Below are positions 28,001 to 31,000 of a DNA stretch of 33,821 nt, piece by piece. The DNA is taken from the IMG/VR virus record IMGVR_UViG_2671180458_000002; one strand, given 5' to 3'. Each line of letters opens with the position of its first letter. Positions within the stretch are counted from its first letter, which is position 1. The position numbers are program-made. Origin of the DNA: a virus. Taxonomy: Duplodnaviria > Heunggongvirae > Uroviricota > Caudoviricetes.

Positions 28001-31000
28001 GATGACAGCCGTTGGCGAAGGTGAGTTACTCATCGGCTGGAGTGGTACAAGCGGTGCTCATGCTCCGGCATTTATTCGTTCACGACGGGATACGACCGAC
28101 GCAAACTGGTCGCCGTGGGCGCAGCTTTACACCTCGGCTCATCCTCCTGCAGAGTTTTATCCAGTCGGTGCACCAATCCCGTGGCCATCAGATACCGTTC
28201 CGTCTGGTTATGCCCTGATGCAGGGGCAGACTTTTGACAAATCTGCATACCCGAAACTTGCAGCCGCTTATCCGTCAGGCCTGATCCCTGATATGCGTAG
28301 CTGGACGATTAAGGGCAAACCTGCCAGTGGTCGGGCCGTATTGTCTCAGGAACAGGACGGCATTAAATCGCACACCCACAGCGCCAGCGCATCCAGTACG
28401 GATTTGGGGACGAAAACCACATCGTCGTTTGATTACGGCACTAAATCCACGAATAACACCGGGGCGCATACGCACAGTGTGAGCGGTACAGCCGCAAGTG
28501 CCGGAAACCATACTCATAGTGTCACAGGCGCATCAGCAGTCAGCCAGTGGTCACAAAATGGGTCAGTACATAAGGTAGTGTCTGCGGCCAGTGTGAATAC
28601 AAGTGCTGCAGGAGCGCACACTCATAGTGTCAGCGGCACCGCTGCATCTGCAGGTGCACACGCACATACTGTCGGTATTGGTGCTCATACGCACTCGGTT
28701 GCGATTGGCTCACATGGACACACCATCACCGTTAACGCTGCTGGTAACGCGGAAAACACTGTCAAAAACATCGCATTTAACTATATTGTGAGGCTTGCAT
28801 AATGGCATTCAGAATGAGTGAACAAGCACGGACCATAAAAATTTATAATCTGCTGGCCGGAACTAATGAATTTATTGGTGAAGGTGACGCATATATTCCG
28901 CCTCATACAGGTCTGCCAGCAAACAGTACCGATATTGCACCACCAGATATTCCTGCTGGCTTTGTGGCTGTTTTCAACAGTGATGAGGCATCGTGGCATC
29001 TCGTTGAAGACCATCGGGGTAAAACGGTTTATGACGTAGCGTCAGGGGACGCGTTATTTATTTCTGAACTCGGTCCGTTACCGGAAAATGTTACCTGGTT
29101 ATCGCCGGAAGGGGAGTTTCAGAAGTGGAACGGCACAGCCTGGGTGAAAGATGCAGAAGCAGAAAAACTGTTCCGGATCCGAGAGGCGGAAGAAACAAAA
29201 AACAGCCTGATGCAGGTAGCCAGTGAGCATATTGCGCCACTTCAGGATGCTGTAGATCTGGAAATCGCAACGGAGGAAGAAACCTCATTGCTGGAAGCCT
29301 GGAAAAAGTATCGGGTGTTGCTGAACCGTGTTGATACATCAACTGCACCTGATATTGAGTGGCCTACGAACCCTGTCAGGGAGTAATCATTGGGATTATG
29401 CCGCAGCACGTCTTAAGCAAGAACGTGCTGCGGTTGGATGCTATTTTTTCCCTGAAGCGGAAAACATTACTACAGTACCTTGAACCTTGGTTTTAACATT
29501 CTCGAAATGCTCTGAGAGTATATGTGTTAAGCCTTCTTCGGAATCTTTTGTGTTTGAAAAGATGCCTTTCTGATTGTAAATACGCATCAGTTTTTGACCG
29601 AAGCTATTGTGCACAACTCCATCGCCAAGAATTGTGGCTCCGTATAGAGTTCCATCGTCAGTTAAGGCCTGCGCCGCATTGCGTATTACACAGCTTTTTG
29701 TAGATATATTTCCAGGCAGGCAGTGAAGAAGGTAAAACATGGAAATGGAATCAAATTGACCATGTAACGCCGCGGGATAAGGTTCAAAAACATCATGGCT
29801 AATTTTATGTTTAATTTTTGATTCCCCAGCCCTTGTAGATGCCGCGTTCAGGCTAGCTTCGTTCAAATCCATTAAAGATATCAGACTACTCTCAGGTACG
29901 TGAGTAAGGTAAAACCCAGTTCCAACACCAATATCCAGATGGTTGTTACCTAAATGTTCCAGAAAGTGTGGAAGAAGGTGTTCCTTTGTAGGACATCCCC
30001 ATGCAAGCCGATTTGATACTCCCAAAACCCACCAGTCATAAAGCTTTAGGGTAAGTGGTGTGTAAATTTTAGCCCCATCATCTGTGTTTTTTTTCATTAA
30101 TTTCACCATGTTATAGTTTTATTTGTGAATTAAATCAATTATGGCGATGAATTACAAGGGGTTAAATGCTGCCGCAGCATAGCGATATTGAAATAGCCTG
30201 GTATGCTTCGATACAGCAGGAGCCGAATGGCTGGAAGACCGTCACCACACAGTTCTACATCCAGGAATTCAGTGAGTATATTGCGCCACTGCAGGATGCT
30301 GTAGATCTGGAAATCGCAACGGAGGAAGAAAGATCGTTGCTGGAGGCATGGAATAAATATCGGGTATTGTTGAATCGTGTTGATACATCAGTAGCTCTGG
30401 GTATGAAGCTGTTTGTAACTCATGTTACAGTAACAGCCATTACTATCTCGAAGGTGCAAAATGTATATTGATTTGATATTTTATAAATTTACTTCGAATC
30501 TGGCACGTCAACTTTTGATTAAAGTAATATCAGTTTTCGGCGAAAAAGGACCGTGTACATGAGACGATTTCATACAAGAATAACAAAAATATGAATATGC
30601 TCCCAATGCAATATATGTTTTGCATTGGGAGCAAATAGCGGAATATTTTGAAATTATTGTATTTCTGCTTCAGAATTTCCTGGGCAGTATATATTTTCTA
30701 TTTTTTGTGGAGTGATCAGGTGATGTACAACTGCTTTATCTACACATAAATTAACTCCGGTGAGAGCTAATGTATGCCCATCACCATTTATTGTTAGTAA
30801 CGGGCTGGAAAATTTCTCTGCCATCTTACGGGCATTAATCCAGGGCGTTGTTGGGTCGTATTTGTGTGCTACAAACAGTAAACCAGAGGGCAGAACAGTA
30901 TTTTTCAGGCGAGTTTTGTTCAGGTCGCTATGTATTGGCCATAATTCACAAAAATCAGGTGAATCGGAACGTCCATTGTCAAAGTTAATAGCCGGGAAGG

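Follow-up and report, generated by a model that had tools for sequence, protein, structure and literature searches.

The DLP12 prophage of Escherichia coli K-12 MG1655, located at the argU site, ends in a short run of annotated genes in which ybcY, a methyltransferase pseudogene, lies between tfaD and tfaX and is followed by appY and ompT. The window analysed here, meaning the whole of a 33,821-nucleotide stretch of DNA from a virus of the Caudoviricetes (IMG/VR record IMGVR_UViG_2671180458_000002), contains an intact version of this tfaD-ybcY-tfaX layout. It consists of a complete tail fibre chaperone gene (tfa), an oppositely oriented methyltransferase (MTase) gene, and a fragment of a second tfa allele fused to an unrelated gene. 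Very probably, this cargo (‘b-region’) end of a DLP12-type prophage combines two separate histories, that of a captured MTase moron and that of a tfa recombination fossil.

Two described processes offer the closest comparisons. Morons are independent transcription units added between conserved phage genes (PMC3594210), of which HK97 gene 15 and lambda lom and bor are lambdoid examples. The second process is the mosaic exchange of tail fibre modules. Exchange of lambda stf-tfa with the Rac and Qin prophages has been measured, and lambda Red tolerates ~12% divergence with only a ~100-fold penalty (PMC3945230, De Paepe et al. 2014).

Genes, gene order, orientation, chromosomal site, and the 5′ junction of the second tfa copy are the same in K-12 DLP12 and in the window, and nucleotide identity over 28948-30395 is 97.9%. 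In K-12, however, ybcY is frameshifted and the head and tail genes are deleted, whereas both the prophage arm and the MTase gene are intact in the window. The two also differ in their cargo, as appY takes the place of an alpha/beta hydrolase gene in K-12, and in the second tfa copy, since in K-12 tfaX the sequence of a third tfa allele, carrying an in-frame TGA (61 aa), takes over in mid-repeat.

The arrangement is not confined to these two sequences. At a coverage of at least 80% of 28700-30700, it is present in 1,127 of 5,426 complete E. coli genomes, and strains H10 and EC93 are identical to the window over this interval. The isolated phages PhiR26_1, PhiR30_1, 2G7b, ev243, and Turner carry it between the fibre genes and attP-int, and prophages carry the cassette at several attachment sites (argU, ompW, near potB, and others). 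The Prokaryotic Genome Annotation Pipeline (PGAP) labels the second tfa copy of H10 as ‘tail fiber assembly protein; incomplete; missing N-terminus’, a pseudogene. Annotated in K-12, labelled automatically by PGAP, and recurrent in phages and genomes, the arrangement is already known and is ordinary phage mosaicism (a moron and a recombination fossil), not a new system. For the same reasons its value as a discovery is small, and it agrees with what is established about morons and mosaic tail fibre regions. Literature searches found no functional study of ybcY or tfaX.

The methyltransferase gene and its left edge

The MTase gene, an intact homologue of ybcY (phrog_2132), occupies 29441..30109 on the minus strand as a 222-aa open reading frame (ORF). 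Its product carries HLDIGVGTG, the glycine-rich motif I, at residues 57-65 and exceeds the gathering cut-offs (in brackets) of four Pfam families: Methyltransf_12 with 37.6 bits (30), Methyltransf_23 with 28.8 (27), Methyltransf_25 with 27.7 (27), and Methyltransf_11 with 24.6 (21.2). The protein has the seven-stranded alpha/beta fold of class I methyltransferases, which bind S-adenosylmethionine (SAM). An earlier note on this DNA had placed an AT-rich, oppositely oriented class I SAM-methyltransferase between two tfa copies, and motif, Pfam scores, and fold all agree with that assignment. The base composition does so as well, with a GC content of 0.38-0.43 across the gene compared with 0.45-0.65 in tfa and stf.

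Translation probably starts at M5, the ATG at 30097, and not at the ATG at 30109, because homologues are 218 aa long, M5 is invariant, and phrog_2132 is aligned from residue 5. The protein would then have 218 aa. A GGTGA sequence lies 7 nt upstream of ATG 30097, and a -10-like TATAAC adjoins the upstream ATG (30109). The divergent spacer at 30110..30165 holds sigma-70-like promoter matches for the MTase gene. On its minus strand is found TTAACC-16-CATAAT, although the number of sigma-70-like matches there is not above chance. The spacer also holds TTGATT-17-TATAAC, which is the K-12 ybcY promoter listed in PMC3946193. For this K-12 promoter, in the spacer between ybcY and tfaX, RpoD-holoenzyme binding and an H-NS flag have been recorded (PMC3946193).

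On its left side the gene is bounded by a hairpin at 29400..29435, which is common to the converging tfa and MTase transcripts and folds with -28.6 kcal/mol on the plus strand (z -3.5) and -25.4 on the minus strand (z -3.35). On the MTase strand it is not followed by a U-tract. Upstream of it lies tfa itself (28802..29386, plus strand), the last gene of the late operon, which encodes an intact tail fibre chaperone of 194 aa. Pfam Caudo_TAP covers this protein over profile positions 1-130 of 131 (E=3.2e-45), and the gene is 93% identical to lambda tfa at the nucleotide level. Lambda has tfa and the hairpin in common with the window, and its homology ends at 29435, six bases before the MTase stop codon. 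In ev099, tfa is followed by unrelated DNA without an MTase gene.

Whatever stands before it, the MTase unit always begins on the left with this hairpin. It precedes the MTase gene after the tfa stop codon in the window, K-12, and UTI89, after a Pin invertase and ynaE block in Kati, PhiR68_2, Turner, and PhiR42_1, and after a Mn-catalase/yciEFG block in O157:H7 86-24. The interval from the last tfa codons to the hairpin (29364-29401) is a second insertion hotspot. There, the block of the four phages, 1.75 kb long, carries an invertase of the PinQ/PinR type together with ynaE, and that of O157:H7 86-24 carries Mn-catalase and yciE/yciF/yciG-like stress genes. The hairpin also lies under a match to Rfam CssrB (Shigella chromosomal sRNA B) at 29370-29432 on the plus strand, with 32.6 bits against a gathering threshold of 76.

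The MTase gene is a self-contained moron, as the earlier note had read it: it is extra DNA relative to lambda and ev099 and has a distinct base composition. Like HK97 gene 15 and lambda lom and bor, it is an added gene, absent from lambda at that position, that differs in composition from its surroundings, has a putative promoter region of its own and a 3′ hairpin, and is encoded on the strand opposite to the late operon. It differs from typical lambdoid morons in the H-NS binding of its K-12 spacer (PMC3946193) and in its closest relatives, which are ordinary chromosomal genes of other Enterobacterales. These homologues, with 56-65% identity, are found in Salmonella, Enterobacter, and Yersinia as single chromosomal genes in unrelated non-phage neighbourhoods, and the phage gene consequently looks captured. 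The proposed history would begin with the capture of such a host-type gene from an enterobacterial chromosome and its placement, antisense, right after the tfa terminator hairpin.

Once acquired, the gene appears to have been kept. It is present in 3,799 of the 5,426 complete E. coli genomes (~70%) and intact in 13 of 15 E. coli and coliphage loci that were fetched. The most diverged allele carries 8 synonymous and 2 non-synonymous changes (omega 0.07), and by this measure the gene is under purifying selection. In MS 57-2, in a CFT073-type context, DLP12 has lost nearly all phage genes and is reduced to a minimal remnant (locus 4923-7905; argU-int′-′tfa-MTase-ompT), in which a tRNA-Arg gene, an integrase fragment, and a tfa 3′ fragment are accompanied by an intact MTase gene and ompT. 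This remnant suggests that the MTase-ompT pair is retained at the level of the host. Intact, under purifying selection, present in ~70% of complete E. coli genomes, and kept beside ompT even in minimal DLP12 remnants, ybcY is a reasonable target for knockout combined with metabolomics.

The fold of the enzyme matches small-molecule methyltransferases, not DNA methyltransferases, and the ranking of its structural neighbours is too even to single out one substrate. The protein shows neither a motif IV of the form (D/N/S)PP(Y/F/W) nor a C5-type PC motif with a target-recognition domain, and no DNA-methyltransferase family hidden Markov model matches it. Most likely, the enzyme would be expressed in the lysogen and would methylate a small molecule or lipid there, not DNA. 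A role in a defence system was considered and set aside, as the PADLOC match is marginal.

The second tfa copy and the chimeric reading frame

A direct repeat brackets the MTase gene. Copy 1 lies at 29210..29341 and copy 2 at 30259..30390, both on the plus strand and spaced by 1049 nt. Over 132 nt they are 88% identical (116/132 matches, confirmed by MAFFT; binomial chance of at least this number of matches ~1e-48), and no longer repeat exists within the 26-33.8 kb region. The first 12 nt are weakly similar, and the core (29222-29341 and 30271-30390) reaches 108/120, or 90%. The recurrence of the tfa 3′ end at ~90% identity, as described earlier, thus holds over the 120-nt core and lies well above chance. 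The description was otherwise accurate, but its coordinates were ~5-11 nt off at the edges.

Copy 1 corresponds to ~codons 137-180 of tfa, which encode the C-terminal helical (trimerisation) domain. Within Tfa it is this domain that is conserved, in contrast to a variable N-terminal domain that binds the fibre (PMC9608196, citing North et al. 2019). The two copies differ at 16 sites, and synonymous divergence (dS 0.356) greatly exceeds non-synonymous divergence (dN 0.077). The excess indicates that each copy belonged to a working tfa gene while they diverged and that copy 2 derives from another allele, of which it is a fossil 3′ fragment. No full-length tfa more than 91% identical to the form of copy 2 in UTI89 was found as a donor in the phage collection.

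Copy 2 does not stand alone but is part of a 101-aa ORF at 30166-30471 (plus strand), which is a chimera of an unrelated small phage gene and a tfa 3′ end. The head (30166..30258) consists of the first 31 codons of a small b-region gene of the HK225_029/Klebsiella phage 79-aa ORF family. In translations and pairwise alignments, the first 31-36 residues of the chimera match the N-termini of HK225_029 (99 aa) and of the Klebsiella phage ORF, and tblastn gives 75% identity to a degenerate ORF of Ayreon and 51% to Klebsiella phages. Among the PHROGs families, phrog_3893 matches residues 3-37 of the head and phrog_2341 (88 aa) corresponds to the whole chimera. The tail (30391..30471) is read-through into unrelated DNA beyond a breakpoint at ~30390-30395. 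Caudo_TAP matches the ORF at profile positions 75-121 of 131 only, and it falls outside Tfa, with foreign residues 1-31 and with the last ~15 Tfa residues replaced by read-through sequence. What had been called a ‘truncated tfa-like ORF’ is thus chimeric, and it is also in decay. A DinI origin of the 5′ part, raised by a ‘DinI family’ pseudogene on the minus strand in the PGAP annotation of W60 and by the annotation of Eeyore, was rejected on account of the homology to HK225_029 and the Klebsiella ORF. The real DinI of HK225 is encoded by the neighbouring gene, and Pfam DinI gives no match.

Ayreon shows where the head came from. This phage has lost 29477-30135 but still has the hairpin, the final ~12 codons of the MTase gene, and the spacer upstream of it. 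Its small gene runs past the junction and not into tfa, which identifies the small gene as the original right-hand neighbour of the MTase gene. All carriers examined (window, K-12, UTI89, O157, Kati, and 2G7b) have one and the same 5′ junction, at 30258/30259, which points to one founding event. Such an event would have fused codon 31 of the small gene to ~codon 137 of another tfa allele that was functional at the time. Flanking homology is evident neither at this junction, which in that respect is unlike a homologous exchange, nor at the 30390 breakpoint, and both are probably illegitimate joins.

To the right of the common junction, the carriers part ways. In UTI89, the tfa sequence of copy 2 carries on to its natural end, stop codon and hairpin included. 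A change to a third tfa allele, one with an in-frame TGA, takes place at ~30345 in K-12, Kati, and PhiR68_2, and appY comes next. In the window, 2G7b, Turner, and O157, the tfa sequence breaks off at ~30390 and is replaced by DNA that extends to the hydrolase gene. The mid-repeat switch of K-12 is a direct trace of homologous exchange. On the left, other fibre modules are joined at 29267, within copy 1, in 2G7b and ev243. As copy 2 encodes part of the conserved Tfa C-terminal domain, it is still 88-90% identical to working tfa and usable for homologous exchange. After the founding fusion, it would have served as a crossover site that joined the cassette to other downstream cargo (the native tfa end in UTI89, appY in K-12, and the hydrolase gene in the window), possibly by relaxed recombination of the Red/RecT type. 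The proposed order of events is drawn from ~15 loci, not from a full phylogeny.

These exchanges resemble the mosaic exchange of tail fibre modules described for lambda (PMC3945230). In both cases, crossovers fall in a short, ~88% identical segment encoding the conserved Tfa C-terminus, and different fibre modules and cargo are joined at or near it. Here, however, one of the partners is a dead fragment and not a working tfa. The suggestion in the earlier note of a remnant of tail fibre exchange is borne out to the extent that copy 2 is a relic of such a module exchange. K-12 tfaX was also considered as the native 3′ end of a tfa-AraC arrangement like that of ev099, a candidate that was dropped as homology ends with the tfa part.

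The chimeric ORF is decaying, with at least five independent disruptions among its carriers. Premature stops are found in K-12, PhiR68_2, and Kati, a 7-bp deletion in 2G7b, and a frameshift in W60, while O157 has ISEc8 inserted at ~30397 and the ORF has been replaced in MS 57-2 and KUEC74. The latter two and Ayreon lack copy 2 altogether, and in KUEC74 a P2-like invertase/fibre region abuts the MTase gene. As decaying chimeras, ORFs of the tfaX type should not be annotated as tail fibre assembly proteins.

In the ompW-site prophage of UTI89 (locus 7143-7760), a DUF4376 pseudogene fragment lies between copy 2 and the truncated ompW at attR. This fragment may be yet another fossil added to the end of the prophage.

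Other explanations of the bracketed layout

The alternative that fares best, though still improbable, is that the dead tfa fragment is kept by second-order selection as a portable homology handle that moves MTase-linked cargo into tfa-bearing lambdoid phages and prophages. It does not exclude the two separate histories proposed above. The range of attachment sites at which the cassette resides (argU, ompW, near potB, and others), the three right-hand continuations, one of them with its crossover inside the repeat, and the different fibre modules joined at the left are in keeping with this idea. However, a young fossil that persists neutrally where recombination is frequent would leave the same pattern, carriers without copy 2 keep the MTase gene, and no recombinant between copy 1 and copy 2 was seen in the 5,426 genomes. 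If the idea were true, the fragment would be a selected recombination linker for cargo (MTase, hydrolase or appY, and ompT) acting through relaxed recombination of the Red/RecT type, not a neutral scar. What would suit it to this role is that it encodes the one portion of Tfa to be conserved between fibre modules that are otherwise unrelated.

Recombination between the two copies also bears on the proposal, made in the earlier note, that the repeats could still mediate deletion of the cargo. An in-register deletion would join 28900-29270 to 30320-30700, and its predicted product would encode Tfa without the last ~15 residues. No such junction was found at a coverage of at least 80% in the 5,426 complete E. 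coli genomes, which speaks against repeat-mediated deletion. Two-piece matches resembling empty sites or recombinants in ev099, PhiR42_1, Kati, and other genomes proved, on direct BLAST, to be the repeat aligned twice, an artefact.

Insertion of the MTase gene into tfa by recombination, with the two tfa segments as duplicate ends made by the insertion, had been the first interpretation of the layout and is very unlikely. Direct repeats do bracket the gene, and the same bracketed unit recurs in K-12, UTI89, and many phages. Yet copy 1 belongs to a complete tfa of 194 aa, the left edge is a hairpin past the tfa stop codon that is found also where no tfa adjoins, and the 5′ end of an unrelated gene lies on the right, between the MTase gene and copy 2. 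Carriers without copy 2 (MS 57-2, KUEC74, and Ayreon) exist as well. The 16 differences between the copies, with dS at 0.36 and dN at 0.08, are those of genes that diverged while working.

Invertible tail fibre segments with Gin, Cin, or Pin invertases are found in Mu (G), P1 (C), and e14 (P). The layout shares with them duplicated tfa-related sequence beside fibre genes, and it could be viewed as the remnant of a Pin/Gin-type cassette that has since lost its invertase, which is very unlikely. As the earlier note had stated, no invertase gene is present, either among the ORFs of the window or in the PGAP annotation of H10. Close relatives do carry a Pin-type gene, namely the PinQ/PinR-type serine recombinase at 29364-29401 in Kati, Turner, PhiR68_2, and PhiR42_1, and a P2-like invertase and fibre segment abuts the MTase gene in KUEC74. 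The repeats are direct, however, and the layout is therefore not an inversion cassette. The region is not flanked by inverted repeats longer than 26 nt, no alternative stf C-terminal fragment or other fibre tip accompanies copy 2, and the gene to which copy 2 is fused is not a fibre gene. Even in the relatives that carry pin, this gene lies to the left of the MTase gene and copy 2 to the right, still in direct orientation.

That the repeat or the chimeric ORF has a function of its own, either as an IS009-type small RNA or as a mini-Tfa consisting of the trimerisation domain and interfering with fibre assembly, is just as hard to credit. Rfam IS009 (RF02111) matches copy 1 at 29145-29343 on the plus strand with 229.4 bits, above its gathering threshold of 117, and copy 2 at 30189-30392 on the same strand with 108.4 bits, below it. 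The matches follow the coding sequence: the family lies within tfa, in frame and on the coding strand, and codon position 3 is over-represented among its variable sites (12/21). None of the 23 model pairs shows a two-sided, compensatory change, and four are broken in copy-2 variants, in an alignment whose 12 sequences give low power. IS009 was also excluded from a non-coding RNA analysis (PMC5331693). It looks like a coding segment filed as a small RNA, for which an RNA function finds no support here, and where Rfam IS009 matches a lambdoid prophage, the match falls on the coding 3′ end of tfa.

As for a protein function, the recurrence of the chimera as an 88-aa PHROGs family (phrog_2341) and the open 88-aa form with a complete Tfa C-terminus in UTI89 are in its favour. 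The form in the window, on the other hand, has lost the last ~15 Tfa residues, and the stops, frameshifts, insertion sequence, and replacements in K-12, Kati, 2G7b, W60, O157, MS 57-2, and KUEC74 are independent of one another. A role of this open form as a trimerisation-domain decoy that poisons the fibre assembly of competing phages is less likely than the homology handle.

Prophage context and downstream cargo

The window as a whole belongs to a lambdoid prophage at the DLP12 site, argU, and spans its late region and right arm. From the left, it contains ybcN-ninE-rusA-quuD, a porin gene, lysis genes, iss/bor, terminase, and the head and tail genes. The right arm continues with J (21647-25045), lom, stf (25770-28802), tfa, the MTase gene, the tfa fragment, the alpha/beta hydrolase gene, ompT, and attR. 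The genes envY-ybcH-nfrA lie outside the prophage.

The cargo beyond the chimeric ORF is encoded on the minus strand. A terminator-like hairpin at 30598..30633 (14-bp stem, -24.3 kcal/mol, z -6.5) lies downstream of the hydrolase gene (30654..32138), which encodes a 494-aa alpha/beta hydrolase with a TAP-like C-terminus (Pfam Abhydrolase_1/Abhydrolase_4). This protein is a strong match to the PADLOC candidate model PDLC01094 ‘C3a206’ (E=6.8e-56). Its position is taken in K-12, Kati, and PhiR68_2 by the AraC-type regulator gene appY. The last cargo gene before the prophage end is ompT (32325..33278; Omptin, NF008222 with 708 bits). Near 33700 lies attR: the annotated K-12 DLP12 feature ends at the equivalent of ~33700, and phage genomes continue from there into the integrase gene.

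Two further observations concern the left part of the window and the fibre gene. At the left end (~1-700), the window differs from H10 by ~66 bp in the ybcN/ninE region, with an ORF at 213-668 as opposed to 147-602. Within stf, the segment 26100-27400 is Ala/Ser-rich and contains imperfect direct repeats of several families, 26-107 nt long and 63-88% identical.

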